Below, piece after piece: positions 22,218 through 50,112 of a DNA stretch of 54,237 bases. Position numbers and translations under genes: made by a program. The notes beneath the pieces were generated by a model. That model was not told where the DNA came from. It did no database searches and saw only the letters and a program-made list of their open reading frames with translations. Every line of letters begins with the position of its first letter. Position 1 is the first letter of the stretch. The stretch is taken from the IMG/VR virus record IMGVR_UViG_3300030250_000026, one strand, 5' to 3'. The DNA is from a virus.

Positions 22218-22421
22218 ATGAAGGATACGATTAAAGATGTGATAAAGGCACTTGTGTTTGGTGCTGTGATTATAGCTGGCCTGGTGTATGCTGGCCGCAG
22301 TGACTACCGCGATGCGGTGGTGACTGAAATGAAAAATAACGGTACGTACTACTCCATGCTGCATGAGCACCCTGACTGGACTGAGGGTCAGATGGTGGAG
22401 GCGTATGTTGACAAGAAATAA
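22218..22421 (+). CDS. Small single-TM protein
   Basis: ATG at 22218. TM segment VIKALVFGAVIIAGLVY. Confidence 0.45.
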   Translation: MKDTIKDVIKALVFGAVIIAGLVYAGRSDYRDAVVTEMKNNGTYYSMLHEHPDWTEGQMVEAYVDKK

Positions 22422-22535
22422 GTTTTAAGTTGAGGAGTTGATGAGTTGAAGAGTTGAGCGGTTAGTTTTAGAGGTCGACCCCGCAGAGGTAACTTCATAA
22501 ACTTTTCAACTTGTAAACTTGTCAACTTGAAATTC
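22421..22535 (+). repeat. AGTTGA-block palindromic element, copy A
   Basis: Left arm AAGTTGAGGAGTTGATGAGTTGAAGAGTTGAG. Conserved core CGCAGAGGTAACTTCATAAACTT. Right arm TTTTCAACTTGTAAACTTGTCAACTTGAA. Confidence 0.85.
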
Positions 22536-22559
22536 CCCAAATGATTGCTTAGTGAAATA

Positions 22560-22932
22560 ACTACTTTGTGTGTTACAACGTGTGGCCCGCTCAGTCTGTG
22601 AAGATATGGCGGTGCCGCGTACAAAGGCACAGTGCGGTTCGTGATGAATAGTGTGTGCCGTTCTGCCATGGCTTGATGTTTGGACATGGTTCGGCATGAT
22701 GCTGTGGCAGTGGTTGGATTTAAGTTGATTATCTATTACACAGAGGCGTTGTATGGTTCGTGATGAATAGTGCACGCCGCCCATGCAGGTGATAGGCCGT
22801 TAATCGGATAGGCGGCAAGGAGACAGTGCATTGGACTCGCCATCAGTAATGATGCTGGATAGCCTTGGTGACGAGTTTGGTTTTTGCGTGACATAGGACA
22901 TTATGGGGTTCGACTCCCCTCGCCTGCACGAC
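22560..22932 (+). ncRNA. Candidate structured non-coding RNA region (twin hairpins + tRNA/tmRNA-like 3' module)
   Basis: No credible ORF across ~400 nt. The exact 18-mer GGTTCGTGATGAATAGTG sits in two hairpin loops (22636-53 and 22755-72). GGGGTTCGACTCCCC + TCGCCTGCAC lies at 22905-29. Confidence 0.35.
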
Positions 22933-22963
22933 AACAAGATTACTAACAATTAAACGAAAGACA

Positions 22964-23833
22964 ATGGAACAACAGACAACTCAACAACAGGTGGTGGCTA
23001 TGGCCAGCCCTCAGGAACAAGAGATACAGCTGCTTAAGATAAAGCAGGACACCGAGTTTGCTGCCACTCCGGTGGGTCAGCAGGTGAAGCAGTTTGAGGC
23101 GACAATGCGTATTGCCAAGATGTATGCGATGTCGAGTTTTATCCCCGACTCGTATAAATACAAGAATCGTCAGCCTCTTGACATGAATAGTGTGATAGCT
23201 AACTGCACAATCGCCTTGGAGATGGCCACGCGAATGCAGGCCAATCCGCTAATGGTCATGCAAAACTTGTACATAGTGCATGGCCAGCCAGCCTTCAGCA
23301 GCAAGTTTTTGATAGCTTGCATCAATGCGAGCAAGCGTTTTTCTCCTCTCCGCTATGAGTTTAGGGGTGATGAAGGCACAGATGATTACGCCTGTCGTGT
23401 AGTGGCTTACGAGATAACCGACTTGAAGCACAAGGACCCTTTGTATGGTGACTGGATTAGCATGAAGATGGCCAAGGCCGAGGGTTGGATAGACAAGACT
23501 GGCAGCAAGTGGCTGACGATGCCGAGCCAGATGTTGCGATACAGAGCTGCCGCCTTCTGGCAGAGGACGTATTGCCCAGAGATAAGTATGGGCTTGATGA
23601 CTGCCGAGGAGGCTCAGGACAGTTATGTGCCTTATGAGGAGGTGAAGTTGCAGCCGGTGTCGTCGGTTCCGACAGACGAGATAGGGCGTCCTTCGCTGAC
23701 GGAGCTTGCCGCGCGCACTGCTCAGCAGCAGACTGGTGAGGCGCAAGTTGGTGCAGAGGCTACTGAGTCGAACCCTTGGGGCGATGCAGAGGAAACAGAT
23801 GTTGAAGGTGTAAAATCAGAAGGCAATGTATGA
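22964..23833 (+). CDS. recT: RecT-like single-strand annealing protein
   Basis: 289 aa. Central and C-terminal patterns (NPLMVMQNLYIVHGQPAFS...; KWLTMPSQMLRYRAAAFW) resemble the RecT family. Paired with an exonuclease gene. Confidence 0.6.
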   Translation: MEQQTTQQQVVAMASPQEQEIQLLKIKQDTEFAATPVGQQVKQFEATMRIAKMYAMSSFIPDSYKYKNRQPLDMNSVIANCTIALEMATRMQANPLMVMQNLYIVHGQPAFSSKFLIACINASKRFSPLRYEFRGDEGTDDYACRVVAYEITDLKHKDPLYGDWISMKMAKAEGWIDKTGSKWLTMPSQMLRYRAAAFWQRTYCPEISMGLMTAEEAQDSYVPYEEVKLQPVSSVPTDEIGRPSLTELAARTAQQQTGEAQVGAEATESNPWGDAEETDVEGVKSEGNV

Positions 23834-24581
23834 CAACAAGAATCAGAACACGTTAGAGTGGTTCCGCCAAAGGCTGGGTAATATTACTGGTTCGGCAGTG
23901 GGCAACTTGATGGTGAAGCCCATGGCGAAGGGCGAGACATGGAGCCAGACGGCTTTGTCGTACTTGAACCAGGTGGCTTTTGAACGTGCGATGAACCCTT
24001 TGGTGGTGGAAAATGATGACTTGTTTGCGCAGTATGTGGCGTTGAATGAGGTGAAGAGCAAGGCCATCACTTGGGGCCACGCGATGGAGGGCGAGGCCGC
24101 GCACCTGTTCGCGGTGATGTTCAAGAGTTTGTATGGCAGCACGAGTCATGCGCCTTATGAGCTTGAATTGATAGAGCCATCGTCGGTGGTGTGCAAGGAT
24201 TTGCCCCATTTTGCAAGTTCTCCAGACCGCATGTTTTTCAACCCCGAGACTGGCGAGGAGTGTGCTGTAGAGATAAAGTGTCCGCAAGGCCAGTCGTTTG
24301 CGAAGTTTGTGAATGGCGTGTTTTTGCAGTCGTCGCATGAGAGCCAGCTTGAAGGTTTGAAAAAATCAGATAGAAACTACTATTGGCAGTGTTATGCCCA
24401 CATGCTGGCGACTGGTGCGACAAAGACCTATTTTGTGGTGTACAACCCGTTTATGCAGAAGCCAATTTTTGCGCTTGAGATTGCTCGTGATGAGGCTGTG
24501 ATAGATGAATTGCGTGCGAAGATATGTGCTGGCAATGCGTATGTGGACGAGTTGGCAGGCCGCATAACCGGCAAGAGTTGA
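23826..24581 (+). CDS. YqaJ/lambda-Exo-like recombination exonuclease
   Basis: LEWFRQRLGNITGSAVGNL N-terminal signature, plus PD-(D/E)xK elements SSPDRMF...CAVEIKCP. Confidence 0.75.
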   Translation: MYDNKNQNTLEWFRQRLGNITGSAVGNLMVKPMAKGETWSQTALSYLNQVAFERAMNPLVVENDDLFAQYVALNEVKSKAITWGHAMEGEAAHLFAVMFKSLYGSTSHAPYELELIEPSSVVCKDLPHFASSPDRMFFNPETGEECAVEIKCPQGQSFAKFVNGVFLQSSHESQLEGLKKSDRNYYWQCYAHMLATGATKTYFVVYNPFMQKPIFALEIARDEAVIDELRAKICAGNAYVDELAGRITGKS

Positions 24582-24586
24582 AGTTG

Positions 24587-25030
24587 ATGTCAGAGTTATA
24601 CGTTCTTAGAGGTGCGGACGGTGGTTTGATGCCATGCTATGCGGAAGATGCCGCGCAGATAGAGCGTCTTGTCAGAGGGCGTGTGTACCTTGTAAGAGTG
24701 TATGAAGCCCGCAATGTTCGCCTTCACCGCAAGTACTTTGCGCTGATAAATGCAGCATGGGGAGCCTGTGGTGAGGTGTGGCGTAAGAAGTTCAGGAGCA
24801 AGGAGAACTTTAGGAAGAGTGTCACTCTGCTTGCCGGTTATACGGACCATGTGTATAACGCCCGCAGTGGTGAGTGGGTAGAGATGCCGCGAAGCATAGC
24901 CTTTGACCGTATGCGTGAAGATGAGTTTGAGCAGTTGTATGATGCGACGGTGAGGATTATCAGAGCGCAGTTTGCGCCAAGTGGCAAACTTGCGAGAGAG
25001 GCTTTTGAGGAGGAGATAAAGGAATTTTGA
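24587..25030 (+). CDS. DUF1367-like protein (NinB/Orf-position recombination accessory)
   Basis: ATG at 24587. The pattern ARNVRLHRKYFALINAAW...SIAFDRMREDEFEQLY is recalled from DUF1367-type phage proteins. Confidence 0.4.
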   Translation: MSELYVLRGADGGLMPCYAEDAAQIERLVRGRVYLVRVYEARNVRLHRKYFALINAAWGACGEVWRKKFRSKENFRKSVTLLAGYTDHVYNARSGEWVEMPRSIAFDRMREDEFEQLYDATVRIIRAQFAPSGKLAREAFEEEIKEF

Positions 25031-25132
25031 AAAAAAAGGAAGGAGGGCGCAGCCAGGAAGGTATGCAGCGGCGTATCACTCATATAAAAAAGACGATAGC
25101 GCATTTCGTCGGCCCTTCTTCCTTGATATATA

Positions 25133-25300
25133 AAAGTTGATGAGTTGAGGAGTTGGAGTTTTTAAGTTGAAGAGTTGAAGAGTTAAGAGGTCGGTTTAAG
25201 TGGTTGAACTCGCAGAGGTAACTTCATAAACTTGTAAACTCTTAAACTCTTAAACTCATCAACTTGAAGGTAAGCTCATAAACTTGTCAACTCGTCAACT
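25133..25300 (+). repeat. AGTTGA-block palindromic element, copy B
   Basis: Same architecture as the other copies. Core GGTCGGTTTAAGTGGTTGAACTCGCAGAGGTAACTTCATAAACTT. Confidence 0.85.
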
Positions 25301-25334
25301 AATAAAAAACAAGTGACTAATAAAATGAAGATAA

Positions 25335-25787
25335 ATGAGAGAGCAAAGCAGGCTGGACCAGATGAGGCGCCTGGCTAATGAGGGTGTTCCGCGCATGCGC
25401 CGCCACCCCCATGATGAGGAGCACCAGTTGCAGGTGGCCTGTGTGCGTTGGTTCCGGTTGCAATATCCGGAGTTGGCTTATGCGTTGTTTGCCGTGCCGA
25501 ATGGCGGGCGGCGAGATGCGACGACAGGTGCGAAGTTGAAGGCCGAGGGCGCGCTTGCGGGTGTGTCGGACCTGATACTGTTGAAGCGGAGCGGTGCGTA
25601 TGGCGCGCTGCTGATAGAAATGAAGACTCCCAATGGTCGCCAGAGCGATGCTCAACGCAGATGGGAGGAAGAGATTACAGCGTGTGGTGAGTACCGATAT
25701 GTAGTGTGCCGAACGTTCGAGGGGTTCAAGAATGAGGTAAGCGGCTACATCGGCATCTCACTACGAGAAAAAAATAAGAGTGAGTAA
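25335..25787 (+). CDS. VRR-NUC domain nuclease
   Basis: EEHQLQVACVRWFRLQYP...GVSDLILL...LLIEMKTPNGRQSDAQRRW matches the VRR-NUC PD-(D/E)xK layout. Confidence 0.75.
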   Translation: MREQSRLDQMRRLANEGVPRMRRHPHDEEHQLQVACVRWFRLQYPELAYALFAVPNGGRRDATTGAKLKAEGALAGVSDLILLKRSGAYGALLIEMKTPNGRQSDAQRRWEEEITACGEYRYVVCRTFEGFKNEVSGYIGISLREKNKSE

Positions 25788-25788
25788 T

Positions 25789-26679
25789 ATGGCAGAGAGT
25801 AAACGAACGGCCAGTTACTTCTCGCACGACAGCAATGCCAGGAACTCCGACCGATTGATAAAGGTGCGCATGAAATATGGCGCATTGGGTTACGGGGTTT
25901 ACTTCATGATACTGGAACGGTTACGCGATGACCCCAGATACATGAGTGTCAGAGATTATAATATGATAGCCTTTGACCTTCGTGTTGACTCATCGGTGAT
26001 TAAGTCCGTTGTTGAAGACTTTGGGTTATTTGTCTTCACCGAAGATGGTGAGTACTTCTACTCCGAAGGTTTCATGCGCAGAATGGACTTGAAGGATAAT
26101 GAGAGGCAGAAGCGGTCGGCAGCGGGCAAAAGGGCCATGGCTACCAGATGGGGCACTACAACTGATAAGAGTGTTATAACAGAGTTACCCGAAAATGATA
26201 AGAGTGTTATAAGAGTGTTATCGGAAAATGATAAGAGTGTTATAACAGAGTTACCCGAAAATGATAACAAGAAAAGTAAAGTAAAGGAAAGTAAAGTAAA
26301 AGATGATGGTGTAGGAGAAAAATCGCCATCGACGGCATCACCGGCAGAAGTTGATAATCTGGCAACGGACTTGAATGAATTGCGCAAAGAGAGTGGTTGG
26401 ATAAACCTTGTTGCCATGAAGTTTGGCATGTCAGTGGCCGATGTCGTAGGCATGATAGCAGACTTTGAGCTTGACTGCCGCGTGAACGGCAAGACGTATC
26501 ACCAGAACCTTGCTGATGTGAAGAGCCACTTTGCGAACTGGCTCCGCATACAGCGCAAACAAGAAACGAATCATGCAGGAAGTGAACAAGACCCCGCAGC
26601 AGCGGAAGCGAAACATACCCGACGTAGGGGAACTGATGTTGCAGCTACGTCGTCAGCGGATTACTCAACAAGGCTTTAG
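25789..26679 (+). CDS. Replication initiator candidate (DUF4373/Lin1244-like N-domain) containing internal iterons
   Basis: N-terminus SYFSHDSNARNSDRLIKVRMKYGALGYGVYFMILERL. The ATG at 25789 immediately follows the upstream stop. Confidence 0.6.
   Translation: MAESKRTASYFSHDSNARNSDRLIKVRMKYGALGYGVYFMILERLRDDPRYMSVRDYNMIAFDLRVDSSVIKSVVEDFGLFVFTEDGEYFYSEGFMRRMDLKDNERQKRSAAGKRAMATRWGTTTDKSVITELPENDKSVIRVLSENDKSVITELPENDNKKSKVKESKVKDDGVGEKSPSTASPAEVDNLATDLNELRKESGWINLVAMKFGMSVADVVGMIADFELDCRVNGKTYHQNLADVKSHFANWLRIQRKQETNHAGSEQDPAAAEAKHTRRRGTDVAATSSADYSTRL
26164..26268 (+). repeat. 3.2 tandem copies of a 33-bp unit (iteron-like; origin candidate)
   Basis: GATAAGAGTGTTATAACAGAGTTACCCGAAAAT at 26164, 26197 (variant) and 26230, with a partial copy at 26263. 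The 11-mer AAGAGTGTTAT occurs four times. Confidence 0.85.
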
Positions 26680-27268
26680 GTTGCCGCTTGGTGTGGAAGA
26701 TGCTTATGAGCTGCTGTACTCAGCCCTCCGTGTGGAGGTGGAGAGCAAGCATCGCAAGTTTGTGGCAGACGATGAGACAACTCGCATTGTGGCCACGCTG
26801 GCGAAGTATCTGACATCGAAGGACGTGCACTTGACTGGACTGATGTTCTGTGGTATGTGTGGCAATGGCAAGACGACGATGCTGTATGCCCTGCAGAATG
26901 CAGTGAACTGGCTGAAGGAGAATAACCGTTTTAGCAAGGAGCAGACGGAACGCGGTCTTGACCGGCTGAATGTGGTAGACGCTCGTACGATAGTGCGGCG
27001 CATGAAGTTGAAGCCGATGGAGCTGATAAAGACCCCGATGCTTGCCATAGAGGACATGGGTCGCGAACCTGCTGAGGTGCTTGATTATGGCAATGTGACA
27101 ACGCCTCTGACGGAGCTGCTTGAGTGCCGGTACGATGAGCGGTTGTTTACGGTAATCACTACGAACCTGACGGGGGAACAGATACGTGAGAAGTATGGCG
27201 TGAGGATAGCCGACCGCATCAACGAGATGATGGAGATTGTGGTGTTCAAGAACGGGTCGTACAGGTGA
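26573..27268 (+). CDS. DnaC/IstB-like AAA+ helicase loader
   Basis: Walker A CGMCGNGKTT and Walker B LAIEDMG. Start uncertain (26573 or 26636). Overlaps the initiator gene. Confidence 0.7.
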   Translation: MQEVNKTPQQRKRNIPDVGELMLQLRRQRITQQGFRLPLGVEDAYELLYSALRVEVESKHRKFVADDETTRIVATLAKYLTSKDVHLTGLMFCGMCGNGKTTMLYALQNAVNWLKENNRFSKEQTERGLDRLNVVDARTIVRRMKLKPMELIKTPMLAIEDMGREPAEVLDYGNVTTPLTELLECRYDERLFTVITTNLTGEQIREKYGVRIADRINEMMEIVVFKNGSYR

Positions 27269-27280
27269 GGAGGGGGATTG

Positions 27281-27458
27281 GTTTAAGTTGAAGAGTTGAG
27301 GAGTTGAAAAGTTGAGAAGTTAAGAGGTCGGAGTTTCTAAGTTGAAGAGTTAAGAGGTCGGTTTAAGTGGTTGAACTCGTAGAGGTTACTCCATAAACTT
27401 TTCAACTTATAAACTTATCAACTTGAAACTCCAACTCATCAACTTCTCAACTTAAAAG
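27281..27458 (+). repeat. AGTTGA-block palindromic element, copy C (longest; contains an internal duplication of AAGTTGAAGAGTTAAGAGGTCGG)
   Basis: Seen directly. Core GGTCGGTTTAAGTGGTTGAACTCGTAGAGGTTACTCCATAAACTT. Confidence 0.85.
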
Positions 27459-29266: not shown

Positions 29267-29280
29267 TAAAGATAGAGATT

Positions 29281-44200: not shown

Positions 44201-47200
44201 TGTGGCGTAGCTGGAAGGGGCTTGCTGAGCGTGACGGCGGTTCGGTGTTTGAGAAGGCTGAAGATGTGAAGATGCAGCATGAGCTTGGTCAGACTGACGA
44301 GGCTCGCTCGGCGAGTGGTGAGAATGGTATCATGTTCCGTGAGGGGAGTGATGAGCTGAAGGACGTTGTGGAGAAGATGAAGGCTGACGTTGAGCGGTTG
44401 CATGAGGGTGAGCTTGATGATTTGCGCTCGGGTGCGCGGGCTATTGGCGGGCGGCTGAGTGAGCTGAACAAGGCGATGCGCCTGCAGCGTGCTTATGACA
44501 TGAGCACTGTGGCGAGTGTGACGGAGCTGGCGAAGACGATGCTCAAGAATGGCTTGCTGAGTGAGATGAGTGACTATGATGTGCGCCGTTTGCTGTCGGT
44601 GGTGAATAATGTGCATGGCAAGGGTGACATCAGGCCTTATGTGCAGAAGGTTGTGGACATGATGGTTGGCAACCGGCTGCGTAATGTGTCGAAGGCGTTT
44701 GACAAGTTGCTTGCCATGCGTGGGAAGAAGGTTGATGCGCGTGGCGTGGAGGTGCAAGGTGAGCTTGACTTGGCCGGTCAGCGCATGGCAGATGTGGTGT
44801 GGAAGGGCATTGGCATGTCGGACGATGATGTGGCGGACATGTGTGCTGATGCCCAGGACCGCATGATGAGTGCGAATGGTGCGGAGGCAGCTGCTGCTGC
44901 GACGGACTATGCCGGGTGGCAGATTGTGATGCGTTACAATGAGACGATACGTGACAGCAAGAGTGAGGAGGTGCGGTTGCGCGAGGATTTGAAGCGTGCG
45001 AAGGAGGATTATGATGCCGGGCGTATGACGCGTGAGGCTTACATGGAGTTCAGGGAGAGCACGAATGACGCGATACGCGAGAACCGCATTGAGCGTGCTG
45101 AGGCTTATGAAGAGTTGTATGAGCAGCTTGGTGGTGCTTATGGGGAGAGCATTAAGCGTGCGGCTGACTTTAAGGCTGCCGAGAAGGCGCGTGTGCTGGA
45201 GATACAGCATAATGCCAACTCGGACATGGAGGGCCGCCCGGCGCGCTCATACAGAAAGGACACTGCTGTGGACAAGGTGCTGAACAGCTCGCCAGTGCAG
45301 TTGTTGTTTGCCCCGCTTGGTACGTTTGACCAGATGCTGCGTATGTTTGGCAGCAAGAATGTGAAGGGCGAGGGTTACTTGTGGAACCGGTACATGCGTG
45401 GTTGGCTGACTGCGACAGAGAATGAGTATACGGGTTATCGCGATGCTACTGCCGAGCTTGACGCGAAGGCTGCTGAGGTGCTTGGCAAGGGTAAGACTTG
45501 GGCTGACTTGTTTGCGCTTGAACGTAAGTTGCCGAAGGCTACGGTGCGTGTGTGGGACAATGGCGAGATGAGGGAACTTGAATTGCCCCAGGGTAACTTG
45601 CTTTACATCTACATGGTGGACAAGATGGCCGACGGCCGCATGAAGTTGCGCAAGATGGGTGTGACGGAAGATGATGTGGCTGCGATTGAGGATTTTCTGG
45701 ACCCGCGGCTGAAGGAGATTGGTGACTGGCTGCAGGAGGTGTATCTTGTGGAGAAGCGAGGCAAGTATAATGAGGTGCATGAGCGTATGTTTGGTGCTGC
45801 GATGGCTTCGATAGACAATTACTTCCCGCTGAAGATATTGAAGGACGCACGTGCTGAGAATGTGGACGTTGGTGTGGAGAAGCGTGAGTCGGAGATGGCA
45901 TCTACGATTACGGGCAGTGTTGTGAAGCGTACGCGTAATGCGCTGGCACTTGACTTGCTGAACTCTGATGCCTTTTCGGTGGTGCTTGACCACTTGCAGC
46001 AGATGGAGCATTGGAGTGCCTTTGCGGAGTGGAACAGGGACTTGAACACGCTGTTGTCGTACAAGCACTTCCGTAACCAGGTGAAGAATATGCGTAGTGC
46101 ATACGGTAGCGGTGAGCGGCTGTGGGAGGCTTTTGACAAGGTGGCGCGTATTGCTGCTGGCACTTATACTCCGCCCAAGGCTTTTGCTGACAAGCTGGCT
46201 GTAAATATAGCGAAGGGTGTTACTGCTGCGAAGATTAGCTTGCGTGTGTTTACTGCGCTCAAGCAGTTTACATCGTTCCCGGCGTACTTGTCGGACAGTA
46301 ATCCGGTGTATCTGCTGAAGGGTGTGGCTAACCCGTATGGTTCGTGGAAATGGTGCATGGAGAATTTGCCCCTGTTTGAGAAACGCTGGAAGAGCCGCAT
46401 GGCTGGTGACCCGAGGTTGCTGAAGAATGAGATGGACTGGGGCTTGTGGCGTGACAATGTGGTGCAGATGGCTGCGAAGTGGGGTATGACTCCGAATGGT
46501 TTTGTTGATGCGTTGACGGTGTGCATAGGCGCGAGGGCGATGTATGAGACGAGGCGCAGGAAGTATATTCGTTATGGTTATGGCCTGGAGGAGGCTGAGC
46601 GACGTGCGAAACAAGATGCTTCGATATTGTATAACCAGACTCAGCAGTCGAGCGAGGGTGCTTTTTTGTCGGCCTTGCAGGTAGACAGGTCGTGGTATTC
46701 GGTGTTGTTTACGGTGTTCAGGAACTCTTCGATGTCGTATACGCGTCAGTTGTATGCTGCATTGCGCAACACTGGCCGCAGGATAGCGGGTGGTGCGAAG
46801 TTTAAGGGCATTAGCGAGGCGTTTATGGCTAAGCAGATGGAGCGTGACGGGATAGACCCGGATAAGGCTTCGAAGAATGCTAAGGCGGAGTATCGCAAGA
46901 GTTGGATAAATGACTTTGTGCGTGCTGGTGTGTTTGGCTATGTGTTGCAGCTGGCTTGGAATTGTGGTCCGTATGCGCTATATATGTTGTTTGGCGACGA
47001 TGAGAAGAAGGGCAAGGAGATGTGGCATGATATATGGACGCACACTGCATTTGGCTCGGTGGAGGGCTTGACTGGTGGTGATGTGTGGAGCGCGGGCTTG
47101 CAGTCGCTGTGGAACCATTATATGAATGGTGAGGACTTTAATGCTAACAGCGTGAATAAGGATATGCCATTGACGAGTGACTTGCTTAAGGTGGTGAAGA

Positions 47201-47895
47201 AGGTTGGCAGTGACAATTATGGTGCGGTGAATGATGTGCTGAACTTGCTTGTGCAGGCTGGTTTTGGTGTGAACCCTCAGACTCTGACAGATGCGGCGGT
47301 GGCGATATATGACTATTGTGGCTCTGACGTTGAGACGACGAAGGAGTGTGCGTTGCTTGTGATGCGTGTGATGAACTGCCCTCAGAGCCAGATGGATAAT
47401 ATCTACTTTGATGAGATTGATGCTACTGGCGAGGAGGCGAAGGCGATGAGTGTGGAGGAGATTGCTGAACGCTATGCGAGGTATAAGGCTTTGCGGAGTG
47501 CCCCGTTGCGTGCGTTGAGCAGTGATGCCTTGAAGGCTGCTGAAAAGAAGCCTCGCGAGAGGGTGCTGACGGAGGCGAAGGAGCAGCTTGACGGCCGATT
47601 GATGACTGAGGAGGCTCAAAGGTATCTTGATGAGTATGAGGCGACGAAGAAGAAGGTGACGGAGACTCGTGCTTTGGCTGATACTGACCCGAAGGCTTTC
47701 ATGCAGCAGATGCCGGCCTTGGCGCGCTCGGGTGAGTTTAGGAGGTACAGGCGTGTCGGGCTGTACAAGAGTGAGGTTGACAAGCTGACGAAGAAGCTGC
47801 TCAGGACGAGTGACCCGGCAGAGCGTAGGGCGTTGTTTGGTAAGATGCTTGATGCTCGTGACAAGATGCTGAAGCAGGTGAGGGAGATGGAGTGA
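29281..47895 (+). CDS. Giant polyvalent protein (6,204 aa): multi-enzyme, probably virion-delivered effector
   Basis: One uninterrupted 18,615-nt ORF. Contains four HExxH modules, ParB-like, pyrophosphatase-like, ART-like and SAM-methyltransferase motifs, and a Gly-rich hydrophobic N-region (see the domain features below). Confidence 0.85.
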   Translation: MPISKSALKNIYATLQKGGYTQDYETFEKGFTGNEHYANRKKVYDLLTANGAQIGDSYEDFMRRIYVAPAKPAAAQTAHPQQTAQAAAPAQHAPAAKPKPRNGQLTAAQRQAYIARAQQMSQQVGASVQRTNNRMDYERARAGLRTPRVQLGSKASGGAKLGENSRVVATKPKFNPATGKMERTYLTESGNEYTSRAAADMEQNEIDQAVQQQLYPSYNNYNDKQAVAAQAPATAVAAQLWKEAQNAYDADSRRYDEMDSKNPWAANMGVAKAQNLEVSRLKHFDLQKMSDNAWARVGKQMTTSCYARLRKMYPNALERQVQASAEKEARALVQNAVYKYAVKMNAPKSQLEYFIKKAVDANMLTSVLRGMARKQAGTTGDMAAYEEAMDEYGKDHRWTGVFGTGVGMAFDPTNWLGGYVGSLAGKAALNIGGRLVLKSAPGVGARLFGSTMAGKLVTGAASGMGMMGTYEGVKEAERQWVYGGHVNPETRENEGYSAGAVALSALKGAGLGAMTGMVSPLVGNVADKVVQTTTSATGKVVTRLGEVATSAVAEGTIFAMPAVISGQESFVDAWTESMAMIVGLKGPHMVKSAGQVIAGMRPVANPRTMAERNKNRRGFVENLKRTMDAGANKQWNGNQPDVRFTKEELAELKQMGYGNLASLLTPTEKVLPKKKPSQPKHPKNTDGLTVYFDVGSGKKEAEADPKMKWLQQHPEFDGYATMEKLMQDPNVSQAARAKAYYMLTGRLLPMGTITGWNVGKDDKGNIWVKSVNSEGEVVTSRRFTDEASAKREEAKIIRQVELNTVDMGEQYKEMQANAAVVETAIKAVAPNADVNEAMRVYGEVKKGNKDYDSYKDLAKSIDEAIASNPEAVERAKTLLPENIRKDIAEQTGVEVDKALGKPEAERTDAEKQAVQTYLERLYDKSASDGAATPPDAQLQGPEQFAEAYAQHRTHKGSGQVVPATMKAGDRKVYVIDGDVVQYADKSGIDVAKSDKSIVVCDAETGKYEYTSPDQLMNVGEPADPSTLSEAYMANERAKEAAANGEGTAEGNAAAEGNAAANGDVSADGGKAEVVEPAYTDGSRVEINGHEYDVKSAGEKTVVLVDEHGKELAWTRSALDAKLESGDAEVLEPKAEAAPDVATEGLKAGDVFEDSDGNALTVKRVDGDKVVAVGADGKAQTYEDGTFEQMVESGVLKRAQKTEEPSEAKVDLTDNQGNPVNDDGTLKVEAVQSVDELTDEDFSAPTRNVQLPALPQNVDAALNANGKPVIIKKNIFKKNWGAHEFYSDESRAILKAALYNTDLVGQRQSNDKPLHWVAIRIDDESPTVVLEVNENKDNIEIVDWFTVDERESKRIYRIKKQAEKNGGELVMLSPKDKVESLSTPQTDLSAESKGTEQSSGVQAEVPQAEVQENAPMPMRVVGKGKNAVQEEDWLATTPKRGHDYVFKESGLDAEEANAFVENKVAEAEKNLEKVKGKAPKMGTNIAAYKEAKADYEARVAEAQKAVDYWHAVKAERDKVLLEERRARKEKDKALYDDAVAQEEQRKAEMAQKAAEQEALGSNAVAPAIKEKWENAPKVDGGADEITLPNGEVVTGHYVLTESGAASASHQATNGFAETEGYPVDVNGETVNDRDYKRDAEAQQVTRGMAADYDSRALQSPVVVSGDGVVLSGNGRTMAGEIAALNGSDAKYNAYLRGHAGKFGFTTEQVEGFKHPRVVFVPDGEMPYTSETFAKFNQREQKSQSRTEMAVKLGKVVDDALFGRVMDVIGRHESLAEFYADDAATAAVVKELADAGVIPQTEMAQLFDGGRLSESGQAMVEGVLVGKVFQGSPDAVRQITEVKSMRKAVMAALPEVVACHRLGGGYDLSKELAAAVDLVYKARKAGFKLGQHVSQHARQGNLFQLDDGATVADYNNAAVMMLADVMNDGRVTQLKKVLSFYNTQAADSAQGIGDMFAGGVKSKGQIINEVNELLNNGQEYDRRTPSVADGQGVGGEGGEQGDVAGPSHQGGAGSERGLSEAFDGLAAQLKTAEGEERKRVLGEMRDGIARFAEENGYPVPEFLLTREDFLAAVPEKDRAKYVEWLDDGAHMPAYYTKGKVYVYVEGCETFDKDVNETLAHEYTHADNAEFPENVNALTYALEDTHEVTRDELREILREMSQGEHYDREAERLEAEGKDVNKMLADEVIAHAVARMVVEGEQVLDGITKNPTLQFIIKRAYKARENERQYNIRARENAERHDNASEGDNRGGSNNGANVEGESANGGVGRPVNGSEGGEVSSERGRSTVSDGKEVAAPSLEGAKVGVTDGEKSSATGDALPSGKGDTPLSEKIATASAEVNTEPTEAQKEAGNYKKGHVQVGTFDITIEQPQGSVRKGTDADGKQWESKMNNTYGYIRGAVGVDGDHIDVFLSNDIDGWNGRRVFVVDQYNPDGSFDEHKVMLGFNDADEAKNDYLANYENGWENGRRIDVTAVNLEDFEKWIASSKRKTKPFGEYSSVKNGVVPSGEGDTPLLDVDGKPIVVKADDGKVELNLRTWQDEKQQVRDALLDGGLEPEAVDAMMAQAETIASGMSGLADKYPLFGAWQKVAATNRPILRNNAGGYLSFDYSFNCVKKDALNAVMEALVAEGKGGHLGVTQVEALKKVLQKHGFLTPCVMCYVEAKRKVYKQSKEMAAKWNAVAEAAGLTGEDMGAERELGAEQRNALAQLANGENLGSVKGSAENGKYGIKKDTIVKIAKLMLDSAKLRGRMNYEWMMSPSSYTEMYNKFGDTGLMEFMSQGQSRGKALLETSPFSFKSVPRDLMMGMYNPVVLANMGGVRQFSYEDARAVMFFDYYTQFLVMQGARAPEHLYTKRPFMPEMFGRTGAMMNQSLIVDIWRGEEWHKKALGLSDKEYDAWLTAHAGFVPRGALPKGHTLYEAGSTELVPNWGVESFPVDIAMKNVHNKDYKGTVGNVVVAPNRKFILWALDNPDIHMVLAYHANGANPLVKSLTGYDRAEAMDDGYHTHDENGKVVDELSVPEIGLEIHDGDLQWNVLLRRNGYDARKAAQVYLDYCKEHGLTPMFCYDGVVDMSGERATSHPEYYKLLTDFRVYDEDGNSIRQRAVKALLPENWQVILDKYLQQESALGSKVGHIGLDEGLMKEINAVTRFASIESGERDTLTKLLTSIYGKDNVQVLATREFDAALDEVTERGHAQMLRDNGGTVYGFAVGDRIVLNEDLFNANTPMHEHTHVYMKVLKATNPRLYNRGMELWRDTPLWKQAKRGLEELGEEPTDEQIFSECMSQFTGVENEKVISEVTGITDKNWLQKAMSWLSEMWKGVKSAFSRWTQNDLDGLTAEQFGRMPLRAVYDAKERKAYAKMVKQVFGNGGAGEHGVEMMHEPSREETILRDVVIEHMKGSGLDVIGTEEGQRVLDMANGRYVRLEAKQKRALETATIAEQSTNNATVVSSADGAKVQKVLETLADNYEKRPNKTRGFITDLSRSLGLVQHEASQYGTFETRNGKLVTIRVSNHNARVSFFDENGEEDGISIVISSHKNKGVLNDGKAHLVEYFYPKQSLERSGGKPLADIVKCVSTVLESGKFEDTTGLAQRQEVNAQQIREHRVYHGSGAEFDHFDHSHMSEGEGSQVYGWGTYVTEVKGIAEGYAIRARNGISNINEEWYLKRGELESNIYRAKEQLPFLKGEYKAEMEAQISEWEKQLKEYDGPNNLYTVEIPDDNGSNYLAWNEPLSVEDSGRIISGLFDLPPSDIEEMAKRDYTFKHILYDLIKINDKAQYVPVLAKGNVLSRSTMYDGGREINDFGGVYRRLQGWFGSAKAVSKFLYSLGYAGIKYPADYRSGGREDDAKNYVIFNENDAEITDHVRFFKTKNGEAYGFTVGGKIYYDPRIANAETPVHEYAHLWASALKANNAEEWKNVVDLMKGTNVWEEVKKTYPELETDDEIADEVLATYSGRRGAERLREEMRKAAADGDGVMGKAEAVSALQRVKRAIDRFWKAVADFLHIHYTSAEEVADRVMKDLLDGVDPRKFMGDKAQKEKMRYQFMGEKGAGENVRDAEDYTAFASRYGVSEDMVKDYALGIKTGNLQKANFALTEIRRTMRVANRGMKLSEFGKLFRPVQKELAERYGDIEVLRQEYIDAEMRERGVMEAARKRAEEEAAKRKARADELRLLPEEELDRRYFEAVERGDDAAAREMLDEAARRKGYGDTESEYQGVGAWVAPSNPGYETDEARRDAVGEDSPDLNVEDMAAGYSNQPEDIFVHPDKYSQGLPTSKESGKAIQTAIDDIRNGKKEVKIKVYRAVPTSVKESKLRNGDWVTPSKEYAEMHGNNRLEGKYRIIEDEVPAGELWWDGNDVNEWGFDDGKGYKYKNVENSRKLNDLVTRDDNGEIIAPSKRFDENVEDVRYRTSEELGQEYGSRWIDEQTNEDGRHTTQVKNTINSYKKFGDWVKRDSGGRNVDVLDASSGLGLGTEWLRENGINVEDVEPYPSENRTAPTYISYGEVKKKYDYIISNAVLNVIPDDWRANVLHNMAEKLKVGGKLVINVRSAESIRKQGKEGETRITLDDPSEILVLRPNGSIKAYQKGFTKAELKEWCEKELGKGYSVEIANDKNAGGSYDTAVVVTKNNESGTIGVASEAGRPRRSAQALPSSNAKLDNNQKFANNLLVLSENLSERDMGAHEFLFNVAKAFGLNGQNLNKSFYQDLSNSVGIRISDHSANTDNITNRNVNDDVYGLVVKLSKNRFKSRSDANYLEYVYYPDKLTGERQREIVEGLNKFLQTGDYMQLPAPDRVNRSGKFDVLIDGRETSPTAKHQAANDLARQMHVEGEVEVVTSTDGLTGRQAKAKGWYDVRTGRVTIVLPNNKNAADVRETVFHEVVAHKGLRNLVGEENFNTFLDNVYNNAEEGIKQTIDEMAEKKYNGDKRKATEEYMAHLAEDGEYVKPENQGFFAKVRDFLTDLLRKVGIKLGFKLTDNDLRYILWRSWKGLAERDGGSVFEKAEDVKMQHELGQTDEARSASGENGIMFREGSDELKDVVEKMKADVERLHEGELDDLRSGARAIGGRLSELNKAMRLQRAYDMSTVASVTELAKTMLKNGLLSEMSDYDVRRLLSVVNNVHGKGDIRPYVQKVVDMMVGNRLRNVSKAFDKLLAMRGKKVDARGVEVQGELDLAGQRMADVVWKGIGMSDDDVADMCADAQDRMMSANGAEAAAAATDYAGWQIVMRYNETIRDSKSEEVRLREDLKRAKEDYDAGRMTREAYMEFRESTNDAIRENRIERAEAYEELYEQLGGAYGESIKRAADFKAAEKARVLEIQHNANSDMEGRPARSYRKDTAVDKVLNSSPVQLLFAPLGTFDQMLRMFGSKNVKGEGYLWNRYMRGWLTATENEYTGYRDATAELDAKAAEVLGKGKTWADLFALERKLPKATVRVWDNGEMRELELPQGNLLYIYMVDKMADGRMKLRKMGVTEDDVAAIEDFLDPRLKEIGDWLQEVYLVEKRGKYNEVHERMFGAAMASIDNYFPLKILKDARAENVDVGVEKRESEMASTITGSVVKRTRNALALDLLNSDAFSVVLDHLQQMEHWSAFAEWNRDLNTLLSYKHFRNQVKNMRSAYGSGERLWEAFDKVARIAAGTYTPPKAFADKLAVNIAKGVTAAKISLRVFTALKQFTSFPAYLSDSNPVYLLKGVANPYGSWKWCMENLPLFEKRWKSRMAGDPRLLKNEMDWGLWRDNVVQMAAKWGMTPNGFVDALTVCIGARAMYETRRRKYIRYGYGLEEAERRAKQDASILYNQTQQSSEGAFLSALQVDRSWYSVLFTVFRNSSMSYTRQLYAALRNTGRRIAGGAKFKGISEAFMAKQMERDGIDPDKASKNAKAEYRKSWINDFVRAGVFGYVLQLAWNCGPYALYMLFGDDEKKGKEMWHDIWTHTAFGSVEGLTGGDVWSAGLQSLWNHYMNGEDFNANSVNKDMPLTSDLLKVVKKVGSDNYGAVNDVLNLLVQAGFGVNPQTLTDAAVAIYDYCGSDVETTKECALLVMRVMNCPQSQMDNIYFDEIDATGEEAKAMSVEEIAERYARYKALRSAPLRALSSDALKAAEKKPRERVLTEAKEQLDGRLMTEEAQRYLDEYEATKKKVTETRALADTDPKAFMQQMPALARSGEFRRYRRVGLYKSEVDKLTKKLLRTSDPAERRALFGKMLDARDKMLKQVREME
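30472..31085 (+). other. Domain: Gly/Ala-rich hydrophobic region (membrane-insertion or tape-measure-like)
   Basis: WTGVFGTGVGMAFDPTNWLGGYVGSLAGKAALNIGG...GAGLGAMTGMVSPLVGN... Confidence 0.5.
32170..32870 (+). other. Domain: three ~50-aa beta-rich repeats (SH3/Tudor-like by pattern)
   Basis: MKAGDRKVYVIDGDVVQY.., YTDGSRVEINGHEYDV.. and LKAGDVFEDSDGNALTV.. share a common periodic pattern. Confidence 0.4.
34060..34445 (+). other. Domain: ParB/Srx-superfamily-like (ddrB-ParB type of polyvalent proteins)
   Basis: SPVVVSGDGVVLSGNGRTMAGEIAAL has the GNGR-type motif recalled from ParB-like domains of polyvalent proteins. Confidence 0.5.
35551..35865 (+). other. Domain: zincin-like metallopeptidase module 1
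   Basis: KGKVYVYVEG...NETLAHEYTHADN with a downstream ADEVIAHAV (HExxH + Glu). Confidence 0.6.
36301..36745 (+). other. Domain: inorganic-pyrophosphatase-like
   Basis: GNYKKGH...ITIEQPQGSVRKG...YGYIRGAVGVDGDHIDVFL parallels the PPase YGYI...DGDPVDV metal-binding core. Confidence 0.6.
38875..39132 (+). other. Domain: zincin-like metallopeptidase module 2
   Basis: YGFAVGDRIVLNEDLFNANTPMHEHTHVYMKVL. Confidence 0.6.
39688..40025 (+). other. Domain: IR[IV]S[ND]H module, copy 1
   Basis: GFITDLSRSLGL...VTIRVSNHNARV...LVEYFYPK...VLESGKF. Paralogous to 43294-43612. Confidence 0.45.
40072..40850 (+). other. Domain: ADP-ribosyltransferase-like (H-Y-x, ART-PolyVal type)
   Basis: HRVYHGSGAEFDHF...QVYGWGTYVTE...AKNYVIFNEND fits the His / Tyr / third-strand layout of H-Y-E ARTs. 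Confidence 0.45.
40878..41125 (+). other. Domain: zincin-like metallopeptidase module 3
   Basis: YGFTVGGKIYYDPRIANAETPVHEYAHLWASAL...ADEVLATYSG. Confidence 0.6.
42553..43140 (+). other. Domain: class-I SAM-dependent methyltransferase
   Basis: Motif I VDVLDASSGLGLG, post-I VEDVEP, YDYIISNAVLNVIP, and GGKLVINV. Confidence 0.65.
43294..43612 (+). other. Domain: IR[IV]S[ND]H module, copy 2
   Basis: GAHEFLFNVAKAFGL...VGIRISDHSANT...YLEYVYYPD...FLQTGDY. Confidence 0.45.
43801..44076 (+). other. Domain: zincin-like metallopeptidase module 4
   Basis: GWYDVRTGRVTIVLPNNKNAADVRETVFHEVVAHKGLRNL...TEEYMAHLAEDG. Confidence 0.6.
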
Positions 47896-47904
47896 GGAGA
47901 TGGA

Positions 47905-48025
47905 TAGTTTTAAGTTGAGGAGTTGAAAAGTTTAGAAGTTAAGAGGAATGTTTTAGAGGGTGGACTCGCAGAGGTAACTTCATAAGCTTTTCAACTTGAG
48001 ACTCCAACTCCTCAACTTGTCAACT
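47905..48025 (+). repeat. AGTTGA-block palindromic element, copy D
   Basis: ATAGTTTTAAGTTGAGGAGTTGAAAAG...GGACTCGCAGAGGTAACTTCATAAGCTTTTCAACTTGAG...CTCAACTTGTCAACT. Confidence 0.85.
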
Positions 48026-48053
48026 AATACCTCTAATTGGTAGTGATAGAAAG

Positions 48054-48086
48054 AAAAAGCGTGGCAGATACACTGTCACGCTTTTT
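48054..48086. terminator. Bidirectional terminator between the giant ORF and the convergent RHH gene
   Basis: A5-GCGTGGCAG-ATACA-CTGTCACGC-T5. Confidence 0.75.
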
Positions 48087-48089
48087 CTG

Positions 48090-48260
48090 TTATAATCCGA
48101 GTTGTTTGATTAGGTAATCGCCAACAGCGAGGTTTTGCTCTTTGGCTGCGGTCTTTATTTCGTTCACGGCCTTTTGCGGCATTCGGCAGTATAGGACTGC
48201 ATCGCCTACTTTTTTGCGCCCTGAATTGGGACGTCTGCCGCCCCATGTGTTTTTATTCAT
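48090..48260 (-). CDS. Small RHH (Arc/CopG-like) DNA-binding protein, 56 aa (absent from the ORF track)
   Basis: Translated by hand: MNKNTWGGRRPNSGRKKVGDAVLYCRMPQKAVNEIKTAAKEQNLAVGDYLIKQLGL. Basic arm followed by a beta-alpha-alpha pattern. Confidence 0.55.
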   Translation of the reverse strand: MNKNTWGGRRPNSGRKKVGDAVLYCRMPQKAVNEIKTAAKEQNLAVGDYLIKQLGL

Positions 48261-48355
48261 AGATTATTCATGTTTTATTCATGCCTTTATGTCATCAATC
48301 TTAGTTGAGATATGCCATAGTAGATAATAAAAGAGTCGAGAATTAAATCTCGTGG

Positions 48356-48721: not shown

Positions 48722-48931
48722 TTAGTTTCTAAAATTTCGCAAGCCTTTTTTAAGGGCCGATACGCTTTGTCTCAGATAGAGCATTTCGCCAACCGCATCG
48801 GCATCTTGCTCGCCATCGTGGCGAGGGTAAGCTAAATCTAACAGCGCAATCTCGTCACTCATAAGGTTGTTAATATCTTGATATGCAATGCCTGCGTTCT
48901 TCTCTACTTTCTGTATATCTGCTATTTTCAT
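48722..48931 (-). CDS. Small acidic protein
   Basis: 69-aa ORF in the same cassette. Confidence 0.5.
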   Translation of the reverse strand: MKIADIQKVEKNAGIAYQDINNLMSDEIALLDLAYPRHDGEQDADAVGEMLYLRQSVSALKKGLRNFRN

Positions 48932-48970
48932 AAATATGACTTAACCGTGATGTCGAGGGCTGTGGTTGTG

Positions 48971-49246
48971 TTAGTTAATGGGTTCGATTTCTACTGCCCA
49001 CGCTGGGGTGGTGTAGTCCTCGTTAGCGATGGCGTAGTAAGCATTGCCTACGCGAACGACTTCAAAATAGTAGTCGTTCTCGTGACTTTTCAGCCACTCT
49101 GCGTATTCTTCTGAGCCAAGCCCTTCAAGAAAGTCGTAAATGGCTCCTTGGTCATCTTGTTCGGAGATAGCCTCTGATTTCTCAAAATAGCGAGGTTCAA
49201 CGACCTCGTATAATTCTTCCTTCGCTTTTAAGTCTGTCGTAATCAT
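48971..49246 (-). CDS. Small, strongly acidic protein (anti-defence/DNA-mimic candidate)
   Basis: 91 aa, many Glu/Asp/Tyr residues. First gene after the leftward promoter. Confidence 0.55.
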   Translation of the reverse strand: MITTDLKAKEELYEVVEPRYFEKSEAISEQDDQGAIYDFLEGLGSEEYAEWLKSHENDYYFEVVRVGNAYYAIANEDYTTPAWAVEIEPIN

Positions 49247-49294
49247 AACACTGTTGGTTTAAGTTGTTTGTTACTTTGTTTCTTATTTACGTTG

Positions 49295-49302
49295 CAAAGA
49301 TA
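49295..49302 (-). promoter_or_regulatory. Leftward -7 box TATCTTTG (Bacteroidota TAnnTTTG)
   Basis: The reverse complement of CAAAGATA. An upstream TTTG lies about 24 nt away, which is a suboptimal spacing. Confidence 0.4.
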
Positions 49303-49342
49303 CGGCATTTGTTTTGAGAATGCAAGCAAAACCAAGATTATT

Positions 49343-49373
49343 TTTGCAATACATGTTGTAAAACATATTTTTG
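49343..49373 (+). promoter_or_regulatory. Rightward promoter TTTG-N19-TATTTTTG
   Basis: TTTG at 49343-46, a 19-nt spacer, and TATTTTTG at 49366-73. This is an exact fit to the Bacteroidota consensus. Confidence 0.6.
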
Positions 49374-49489
49374 GGTGTTGGAGGTGGCTTCTATTAGTAG
49401 ATAGAAGTAGATGTACGGTTGGGAATAAAGCGTGCTGCTTGGGTGTGGTGGTTAACTTTGCATTGGACGTGGTTTATGCGTCATGCTGA

Positions 49490-49987
49490 ATGATTATGGA
49501 TATAAGGTTGAACATATTGCGTGCTGATGTGCTTGGGAAGGTGCATGAGATGGCGGGTTACACTGGCGCCAAGATGGTGCAGGGTGATGATGGTGCGTAT
49601 GTGCGTGTGGCGACTACTGAGGCTGATGAGCGTTTGCTGTCGGAGTTTGTTGAACGGGCGAAGGCTGATGTGGTGATGGGGCTTGGCAGATATGGGGCGC
49701 GTGTGCTGGAGAATGAGGACACGGGTGTGATGGTGCTGGCGTTGGACATGCCGTCGAACTATGACACGCGGCTTAATGATGCGGTGTGTGAGGAGGTGGC
49801 GAATTGTATGTTGTATACTGCTGTGGGGTATTGGTTTATGCTGACGAACAAGCAGGAGGCTGGGGCGTATGTGCAGATGGCCCAGGGTAGTTTGGCTGCA
49901 GCGCGTCAGATGCTGTCGAAGCGTGTTGCTCCGGTGCGTGTTGTGCCGACGGTGAGTGATGAGGGAGATGGTGTTAGTTATGAGTGA
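49490..49987 (+). CDS. Paralogue 1 of a three-member family (head-tail connector/completion-like)
   Basis: Shared C-terminal pattern (hydrophobic-Y...W...A...L..R..P.R) and the ending VSYE. Confidence 0.45.
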   Translation: MIMDIRLNILRADVLGKVHEMAGYTGAKMVQGDDGAYVRVATTEADERLLSEFVERAKADVVMGLGRYGARVLENEDTGVMVLALDMPSNYDTRLNDAVCEEVANCMLYTAVGYWFMLTNKQEAGAYVQMAQGSLAAARQMLSKRVAPVRVVPTVSDEGDGVSYE

Positions 49988-49997
49988 GGAGGGAAGA

Positions 49998-50112
49998 TAG
50001 TTTTATAAGTTGAAAAGTTGAGGAGTTTAGGGGTTTATGTGGTCGCTTTTGAGAGTTGGACAAGCAGGGGTAACTTCTTAACTTTTCAACTCTTCAACTC
50101 ATCAACTTGAAA
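49998..50112 (+). repeat. AGTTGA-block palindromic element, copy E (most diverged)
   Basis: ATAGTTTTATAAGTTGAAAAGTTGAGGAG...CAGGGGTAACTTCTTAACTTTTCAACTCTTCAACTCATCAACTTGAAA. Confidence 0.8.

Follow-up and report, generated by a model that had tools for sequence, protein, structure and literature searches.

A hairpin repeat, probably of MITE/REPIN type, confined to temperate phages of Prevotellamassilia timonensis

The viral sequence IMGVR_UViG_3300030250_000026, a record of 54,237 nucleotides from IMG/VR (here called the window, meaning this stretch at its full length), contains five long imperfect palindromes built from AGTTGA and TCAACT blocks, which we name copies A to E. A first-pass annotation, made from the letters alone, suggested that they might be regulated terminators, RNA-processing or stabilizing elements, arrays of protein-binding sites or a phage-resident repeat similar to MITEs (miniature inverted-repeat transposable elements). 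What are these palindromes, and how can a phage genome tolerate them? The last of the four suggestions is the best supported, by dispersed copies, terminal inverted repeats, presence and absence at the same site, one 9-bp duplication and occurrence in two unrelated phages. We conclude that the five palindromes are probably copies of a phage-restricted hairpin repeat of P. timonensis temperate phages, similar to MITEs and to REPINs (hairpins of paired repetitive extragenic palindromic, or REP, units), which is selfish or semi-domesticated and also acts as a recombination junction.

The palindromes lie where they were first reported, are exactly five in number, all on the plus strand, and stand well above chance. 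The sequence AGTTGANNAGTTGA, with at most one mismatch, matches the window 33 times (0.4 expected), and 32 of these matches are inside the five elements; the 18-nt core GCAGAGGTAACTTCATAA, with at most three mismatches, matches five times (0.04 expected), always on the plus strand. A covariance model, R1, was built from 66 copies of a second phage, a siphophage described below, and included no window-type sequence. R1 recovered exactly the five window copies on the plus strand, at 57-81 bits and E values from 7e-11 to 2e-16, which indicates homology across lineages; on the minus strand it gave the half-score echoes expected of palindromes and otherwise nothing below E = 0.7. Folded as plus-strand RNA, the five copies were more stable than dinucleotide shuffles (z = -7.8, -8.7, -5.2, -4.3 and -4.0), and with DNA parameters z ranged from -2.8 to -7.2. 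Each copy had been described as starting just after a stop codon. That is correct for A, C, D and E (Table 1) and wrong for copy B, where the upstream open reading frame (ORF) ends at 25030 and the arms begin near 25133, about 100 nt past the stop. Comparison with empty sites shows that the element extends beyond its arms, with copies C, D and E having a leader rich in G.

Alignment anchored on the core gave the consensus …TTTTAAGTTGA-(nnAGTTGA)n-AAGTTAAGAGGTC-GCTTTTAAGAGTTGGACAA-GCAGAGGT-AACCTCTTAACTT-(TTCAACTn)n-…TCAACTTAAAA. The order of parts is a T-run with the terminus TTTTAAGTTGA, a left arm of 8-nt blocks, 3-12 in tandem, of the form (A/G)GTTNNNN (mostly AGTTGANN), an asymmetric core of ~39 nt, a mirror-image right arm (NNTCAACT)n, the terminus TCAACTTAAAA and an A-run. 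The core itself consists of GAGGTC, a small apical stem-loop, GCAGAGGT as a 3'-side bulge and RACCTC; GAGGTC pairs with GACCTC, which leaves AGAGGT bulged on the 3' side beside the apical stem-loop. While the arms vary, GCAGAGGT is ~99% conserved. At least four sequence variants of the apical stem-loop occur, and a sub-family joins the same core to arms made from other 8-mers (GGTTATAA, GAGTTTTG, AGTTCTGA), with every arm type keeping a GTT…/…AAC triplet each 8 nt. Elements measure 91-224 bp from first to last block, their termini and whole arms are inverted repeats as in MITEs, and they are non-coding, as only 1 of 132 lies within a called ORF. No bare core was found in the sequences scanned, lysogeny-region DNA included: every core-like match has periodic arms, one of them being a truncated half element. 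An RNAalifold consensus kept only nine outer pairs, the apexes being too divergent, and the structure used here was drawn by hand.

How far does the family reach? Five is the right count for the window and far too low overall, since searches of viral contigs with the core and the arm pattern returned 132 elements, spread over 50 loci and including more than 100 that are distinct. The carriers are two phage lineages. One is the window's own phage, with a T7 gp14-like gene, a giant ORF and few, polymorphic copies; the other, which holds most copies, is an unrelated siphophage, a different tailed phage that encodes terminase, prohead protease, portal, capsid, tail tube and tape measure proteins. 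Siphophage density is 13-16 copies per 25-30 kb: starting with the capsid gene, nearly all structural genes have a copy behind them. One metagenome stretch contains 14 elements in 14 kb. Assemblies containing the 36 metagenome stretches are almost all from human gut, and 35 of the stretches belong to the same two lineages at 82-100% identity; the sole exception, L144, belongs to neither and has no element. Chance matches accounted for 8 of 24 viral matches to the 18-mer and 11 of 13 genome matches, all in unrelated coding DNA.

Both lineages lead to a single host. Among 185,579 species representatives searched with the combined core and arm pattern, only P. timonensis was positive, at four loci, all of them prophage; three contiguous loci are 88-96% identical to the siphophage, and the remaining one is a window-type prophage. 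In strain Marseille-P2831T these are L112, L124 and L125 (NZ_LT629841.1 8001-32000) and L121 (NZ_LT629845.1 640001-648000), and all core and arm matches of the P. timonensis reference genome fall inside two prophages. A stretch of the Marseille-P2831T chromosome is 97% identical to the window at 44.6-48.3 kb, so the window represents a temperate phage of P. timonensis or a close relative. Judged from these searches, the family is restricted to phages, and both carrier phages are co-resident in one strain; as it carries both element-bearing prophages, Marseille-P2831T is a ready experimental system. The window's terminase-like ORF is 61% identical to its counterparts in BKO1-TP3 and BS-TP4, which with BF1-TP2 are the nearest relatives of the window phage, temperate Bacteroides phages of ~64 kb; BKO1-TP3 carries an integrase and the same giant gene. 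The sequences of BKO1-TP3 and BF1-TP2, both retrieved and scanned, contain no such palindromes. A crAss-like context, our first guess from the 6204-aa giant ORF, was dropped given these closest relatives. The only proteins common to the window phage and the siphophage are VRR-NUC, a replication initiator, a DnaC-like loader and two structural-region proteins, none element-specific, and a shared protein dedicated to the element was ruled out: element-free relatives also have VRR-NUC, initiator and loader, and HU-HIG proteins are found in the siphophage only.

Copies come and go between close relatives, as insertion polymorphism of a MITE would have it: in phages 95-99% identical to the window, positions A, C and D are empty in some. 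Position A is empty in L009, L011, L013, L014 and L077 and filled in the window, L017, L020 and L102, where the filled sites share their outer arms, have three or four apex types and measure 147 or 221 nt depending on the relative, with varying numbers of blocks. In L102 the element at this position is flanked by a 9-bp duplication, AAGGAATAA, that is single in the empty site. Position B is filled in all relatives, its apex swapped for an A-type (L014) or a D-type (L013). Position C is empty in L020; L009, L011, L013, L014, L015, L017 and L077 have a solo left arm there followed by extra genes, including a cytosine-methyltransferase-like gene, and in L008, L047, L066 and L079, which cover the right-hand side, a dUTPase-like gene has a full element behind it. 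In these relatives a gene cassette, from the methyltransferase to the dUTPase-like gene, is bracketed by a half element on one side and a complete one on the other. The window lacks the cassette and has instead a single composite element whose left half is duplicated. L040 has no element at position D; its giant ORF ends …REIK rather than …REME as in the window, and the terminator downstream of copy D is retained; in L001 copy D is inverted and shortened. Position E is filled in all relatives, with three apex types. Apexes have thus been exchanged at positions A, B, D and E, and the types that replace those at B and E are ones seen at other positions and in the siphophage. Further filled and empty pairs were found in the siphophage group. 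Where its 361-aa and 447-aa genes meet, five genomes have identical flanks and outer arms, but two of them carry the ~40-nt core as its reverse complement.

Insertion sites are narrow. The first block lies a median of 7.5 nt after the upstream stop and the last a median of 22 nt before the next ATG, and at 22 of 58 junctions the stop codon is within the element itself. One filled site has an ORF that terminates …AAG AGT TGA in the first block, and copy D supplies the last two codons and the TGA stop of the 6204-aa ORF. AGTTGA includes TGA, the 8-nt period makes three blocks cover three frames, and the mirrored arms do so from both sides. Reading 40 nt from either side closes every frame in ~56% of elements, compared with 2.5% of random 40-mers. 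As a TGA is met in each frame whichever side is read first, an insertion costs a protein no more than a few C-terminal residues.

These observations suggest a simple way of life. Copies settle only in the few bases between a stop and the next start, often supplying the stop, and within a polycistronic transcript the element is expected to form a hairpin that loops out, rejoining the upstream stop and the downstream start; all-frame stops and looping out together would explain why the repeat is tolerated inside tight operons. Once in place, arms gain and lose whole 8-nt blocks, and copies recombine with one another, swapping apexes between positions and phage lineages, inverting the core in place, and losing or gaining the genes between them. 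Such recombination would account for the position of the window copies at module boundaries. New copies may arise by transposition, of which the 9-bp duplication is the sole direct sign, or when co-resident prophages recombine.

Because phage genomes are compact and each insertion is costly, they seldom contain transposable DNA. What makes the present repeat unusual is that it fills nearly every intergenic gap of a phage structural operon and is common to an unrelated phage in the same cell, with a design, stops in all frames from both sides and a hairpin predicted to loop out, that renders insertions nearly harmless. It also offers a concrete, sequence-defined route to gene-by-gene mosaicism between unrelated phages, and a sharp host marker, one species among all those searched. 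In one survey MITEs were present in 0.2% of viruses, and its generic lists include MITE-like sequences in Prevotella phages (PMC11602168); we found no description of the present element's architecture or behaviour in the literature.

Comparison with known systems places the element closest to bacterial MITEs, such as Correia or NEMIS (Neisseria miniature insertion sequence) repeats of Neisseria, ERIC (enterobacterial repetitive intergenic consensus) of enterobacteria and the MITEs of phages (PMC11602168): it is small and non-coding, has terminal inverted repeats and many dispersed intergenic copies, varies between strains, forms hairpins predicted to be co-transcribed with their neighbours, and is common to a host's prophages. 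In contrast to MITEs, the present copies are confined to phages, with none outside prophages in one host genome, reach a density of up to one per gene, have arms made of tandem 8-nt stop-bearing blocks, and keep a polar core invariant while the arms change. No partner insertion sequence or transposase was identified among 71 proteins from the two phage types and a third phage, and one junction has a target-site duplication. The descriptive features of MITEs are therefore all present, and evidence from target-site duplication and a partner transposase is thin or lacking.

REPINs and bacterial interspersed mosaic elements, mobilized by REP-associated tyrosine transposases (RAYTs), similarly consist of inverted unit pairs forming a long imperfect hairpin, with mosaics of full and half units, concerted evolution within a genome and a plausible single-stranded, strand-specific form (PMC3116915, PMC2817692). 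They differ in their GTAG/CGTC tag, absent here, where units end TTTTAAG and the conserved GCAGAGGT is at the apex and not at the unit foot; we found no RAYT among the 71 phage proteins, and the distribution is not chromosome-wide. Promoter-early-stem-loop (PeSL) sequences of T4-type phages are also repeated intergenic motifs that bracket variable genes, with the ends of indels and replacements falling in the motif (PMC2839356, PMC4122927). PeSLs, however, combine a promoter with a terminator stem-loop and have no long palindrome, whereas the present elements show neither pattern, occur throughout conserved structural operons and not just in hyperplastic regions, and are shared by unrelated phages. 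Integron attC sites resemble the element in being palindromes after each ORF, but their motif order (RYYYAAC … GTTRRRY) is reversed here, with GTTGARR on the left and YYTCAAC on the right, the blocks are repeated many times, and the only integrase present is a phage-type tyrosine integrase, not IntI. The element thus lacks defining features of REP/RAYT systems, attC sites, PeSLs, stoperators and intrinsic terminators (the last two are taken up below).

Several observations weigh against a mobile, MITE-like repeat. Most filled and empty pairs show 12-30 nt replaced, and only L102 has a clean duplication. Because element-like ends remain, some 'empty' sites may be deletions, and because the pairs are untidy the direction of change is often ambiguous, which leaves transposition hanging on a single junction. 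Homology breakpoints fall at elements in 13.3% of cases against a sequence share of 4.6%, roughly three-fold, but this test is confounded, as mosaic joints of phages fall at gene boundaries anyway. The 71 proteins include no transposase family. The combination of a ~99% conserved GCAGAGGT with variable arms, and with a sub-family that uses other 8-mers, points to selection on the core, unlike a purely selfish repeat. Polarity is the last of these points: since cores can flip, their uniform orientation points to selection or to a strand-specific mechanism. In the window all five cores are sense, and in the siphophage ~85-100% are antisense across all modules (14:2, 11:3, 11:2, 6:0 and 14:0 among others), including a replication module homologous to that of the window, in which the elements have the opposite polarity.

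Selection could act on mRNA, with the element serving as an RNase III site, a 3' stabilizer or a translational coupling device that divides polycistronic transcripts. T7 has intergenic RNase III sites of this kind, related imperfect hairpins with internal loops between the cistrons of long transcripts, which are ~60 nt long, fixed in position and orientation and not mobile. The present hairpins are likewise related, imperfect and intercistronic and would leave protective 3' structures, and predicted folding gives the precondition of a T7-type site, an imperfect RNA duplex of more than 20 bp between cistrons, and that precondition only; unlike T7 sites, their orientation to transcription differs by lineage and copies are dispensable. 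The idea, which is compatible with mobility, is a possible but minority explanation in our assessment. It draws on folding well beyond shuffles for both strands, on placement exactly between cistrons, on many positions kept in relatives 84-96% identical and on one-sided helix changes that are mostly of the G-U type. Compensatory changes do not bear it out: in the 21-bp inner helix 85.4% of cells were paired, against 86.1% with partners shuffled among copies, and compensatory changes were not enriched. Because shuffled partners pair equally well, what the pairing records is a conserved inverted-repeat sequence. Pairing is possible for 89% of the apical helix, with alternating U-A and U-G pairs, one position being U-G in 60 of 66 copies, a pattern that the control cannot separate from chance. 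Of 55 elements in which the GCAGAGGT strand is antisense to the genes, 52 fold better on that strand, so that the stronger siphophage hairpin is on the wrong strand for mRNA (-48.5 vs -39.0 kcal/mol), and so do 25 of 31 sense elements; being favoured in both orientations, the GCAGAGGT strand shows that the asymmetry follows the element core and not the mRNA. A comparison of arm wobble with core or gene direction had only nine sense-core cases and no power. With the opposite polarity in homologous replication operons and several positions dispensable in close relatives, the RNA-processing or stabilizer suggestion of the first-pass annotation is weakened, and an additional role in processing, stabilization or coupling is possible, without support from covariation or strand polarity. 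A known RNA family was ruled out, as Rfam at gathering thresholds gave no match in the window and 127 kb of related loci.

The same polarity could instead reflect single-stranded DNA, in which a hairpin of the GCAGAGGT strand, on a lagging-strand template or a rolling-circle tail, would be read by an HUH/Y1 transposase or a priming or recombination protein, with polarity following replication direction. The near-invariant polar core displayed as a bulge next to the apical stem-loop, the apex that pairs only on the GCAGAGGT strand with its recurrent U-G position, and an orientation that is uniform genome-wide whatever the module would all fit, and IS608-type elements do orient with the lagging strand (PMC6006769). 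We nevertheless find this doubtful. The 71 proteins scanned gave no Y1_Tnp match and no HUH/Y1 protein in either phage, the strand asymmetry arises mostly from the apex and nearly vanishes under DNA energy parameters, and IS200/IS605 transposition makes no duplication such as the 9-bp one at the clean junction; homologous replication modules with opposite polarity and a window-type phage that dispenses with several copies are further difficulties. A broader version is no more than an outside chance: the GCAGAGGT bulge and its polarity as a strand-specific phage signal, in single-stranded DNA or antisense RNA, used genome-wide in replication, recombination or silencing, combined with a recombination linker for single-gene exchange between unrelated phages. 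If it were true, the element would be a domesticated gene-shuffling device and not junk. The polarity rule is open to direct testing, as Marseille-P2831T is cultured and both prophages are present. A Chi-like or Type III restriction-evasion octamer was considered and rejected, as CAGAG in siphophage DNA outside the elements has no strand bias (19:23, 12:14, 12:11); the strand bias of the octamer motif in the window fits a purine-rich coding strand.

Proteins might also bind the element as double-stranded DNA, either as a stoperator-like repressor site or as HU/IHF-type sites on the periodic arms, with an effect that depends on orientation. The stoperators known from cluster A mycobacteriophages are repressor sites of a bare 13 bp, one copy of which is the operator. 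Like them, the present family has an asymmetric motif that recurs dozens of times in the short gaps between genes of a temperate phage, in a single orientation to transcription; the strict GTT/AAC spacing of 8 nt even in the sub-family with other blocks, the two HU-HIG proteins of the siphophage and one-sided 8-nt arrays in other phages could be added in favour. Yet the motif never occurs without palindromic arms, in any sequence scanned, and the stoperator-like model fails because of it; the motif has no known cognate repressor, an HU-like protein is absent from the window phage, no regulator is common to both phages, and orientation to transcription is opposite in the two lineages. An 8-bp period would moreover leave the sites off a single face of B-DNA. 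We consider a binding array improbable. Still less credible is an inverton, in which a recombinase would flip the core between its inverted-repeat arms as a switch. Bacteroidales are rich in invertons, and both core orientations do occur at one junction with the same arms and flanks, although between genomes. The flipped segment is just ~40 bp, however, no invertase gene adjoins any copy, polarity is strongly biased and not mixed, and template switching or recombination within the palindrome would suffice without a dedicated enzyme. The core has no promoter motif in either orientation: a scan for sigma-70-like promoters gave a single match near the elements, just touching the right end of copy E, at a frequency not above shuffles and with a consensus that is not of the Bacteroidota type, and reading by eye found no TAnnTTTG, the Bacteroidota-type motif, inside the elements. 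At the bottom of our ranking, and hardly tenable, is the suggestion that the palindromes are intrinsic or regulated terminators marking operon ends. Their large, stable hairpins at window module boundaries and the position of copy D at the end of the giant ORF invite it, but a scan for a stem followed by a T-tract found none in any of the five elements, whose flanks, a T-run 5' and an A-run 3', are in the reverse of terminator order. Copy D has a separate canonical terminator downstream, present even where the element is not, and termination after nearly every gene of the siphophage late operon would abolish expression.

The gene-module description given with the copies agrees with our annotation of the window, and the copies do lie at module boundaries (Table 1).

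Table 1. Positions and makeup of the five palindromes and two neighbouring structures in the window. Model matches are to R1, all on the plus strand.
Feature	Coordinates	Strand	Upstream stop	Core octamer	R1 match	Gene context	Composition
Copy A	22422..22539	+	TAA 22419-22421, directly before	GCAGAGGT 22483-22490 (core 22458-22496)	22439-22521, 74.1 bits	after integrase, repressor and a small early ORF (22173-22421)	left terminus GTTTTAAGTTGA, four AGTTGA blocks, right arm, then GAAATTCCCCAA
Copy B	25129..25303	+		25212-25219	25168-25250, 81.4 bits	RecT, YqaJ and NinB-like genes upstream, VRR-NUC gene on the other side; separate stem-loop precedes	arms with internal GAGTTTTTA / GAAGGTAAGCTC irregularity
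Copy C (composite)	27270..27458	+	TGA 27266-27268, DnaC-like loader gene	variant GTAGAGGT 27379-27386	27335-27417, 75.3 bits	VRR-NUC, replication initiator and DnaC-like loader upstream	G-rich leader GAGGGGGATTG, left arm, duplicated left half (…AGTTAAGAGGTCGG twice), core, right arm
Copy D	47889..48036	+	TGA 47893-47895, within the element	47968-47975	47924-48005, 57.5 bits	T7 gp14-like protein gene and giant ORF upstream	begins GGAGTGAGGAG…
Copy E	49988..50113	+	TGA 49985-49987, directly before	variant GCAGGGGT 50064-50071	50019-50101, 71.1 bits	between two phrog_19255 paralogues, 21 nt before ATG 50135	G-rich leader GGAGGGAAGATAG, left arm, variant octamer, right arm
Separate stem-loop 5' of copy B	25036..25124	+					13-bp stem, 63-nt loop; outside the repeat family
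Canonical terminator	48054..48087	+				directly after copy D; not part of the element	A-tract / GC stem / T-tract, aaaaagcgtggcagatacactgtcacgcttttt

The stem-loop ahead of copy B had also been noticed in the first pass; it exists, with coordinates one base off from those given (the stem is 25036-25048 / 25112-25124), has 12 Watson-Crick pairs and one G-T pair, and is kept in all relatives covering the site. Upstream of copy D, the giant gene is a single ORF of 6204 aa at 29281-47895, downstream of the gene for the T7 gp14-like internal virion protein; its counterpart in BKO1-TP3 has 5553 aa and is annotated as 'DarB-like antirestriction'. A strong Shine-Dalgarno-like AGGAGGT stands 8 nt 5' of the ATG at 50135 (window 50115-50137), beside copy E. 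Bacteroidota are generally thought not to rely on Shine-Dalgarno pairing.

Repeats outside the family also occur in the window. Within the replication-initiator gene (25780-26679), a 33-nt unit is repeated 3.2 times with 88% matches at 26163-26267 and looks like an iteron-type origin, by analogy with lambdoid phages. An 11-nt repeat, TTGGAAAACAT, is present in 3.2 perfect copies with about two more 250 nt away (19272-19306 and 19560-19585), adjoining the integrase gene at 18037-19230; these repeats may be arm-type integrase sites of a putative attP. A 26-nt inverted repeat, 85% complementary with a 4-nt spacer (20268-20323), lies just upstream of a repressor-like gene (20315-21109, minus strand), overlaps that gene's 3' end, and could serve as an operator or as a bidirectional terminator. 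Two short tandem repeats, in intergenic DNA or close to it, are CACAAGCAACT, five times (15962-16014), and TTTTATTCATG, three times (48251-48283).

Among siphophage contigs, all carry adjacent HU-HIG/HU-like genes, encoding 130 and 136 aa, in the middle of the structural operon (L078:5294-6106 and orthologues), and a C-rich tract, CCCCCTCCCCCTCCC, stands directly upstream of the ATG before these genes. The 8-nt AGTTGA/TCAACT periodicity recurs beyond the hairpin family. Sister hairpins in a third phage (L042:7520-7820, L042:6300-6440; L048:1960-2050) have arms of 8-9-nt blocks, GAGTTTAAT and CGAGTTGA, around unrelated centres, one of which is a strongly folding, GC-rich insert of 130 nt with no Rfam match. 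One-sided arrays of 8-nt blocks occur in unrelated viral contigs from other samples (L060:2823-2910, L055:16-78, L090:5594-5664, L100:5315-5416 and L110:4242-4296), for example (TATCAACT)x11, (CATCAACT)x8 and (CGAGTTGA)x10, and are often G-poor and just 5' of a start codon.

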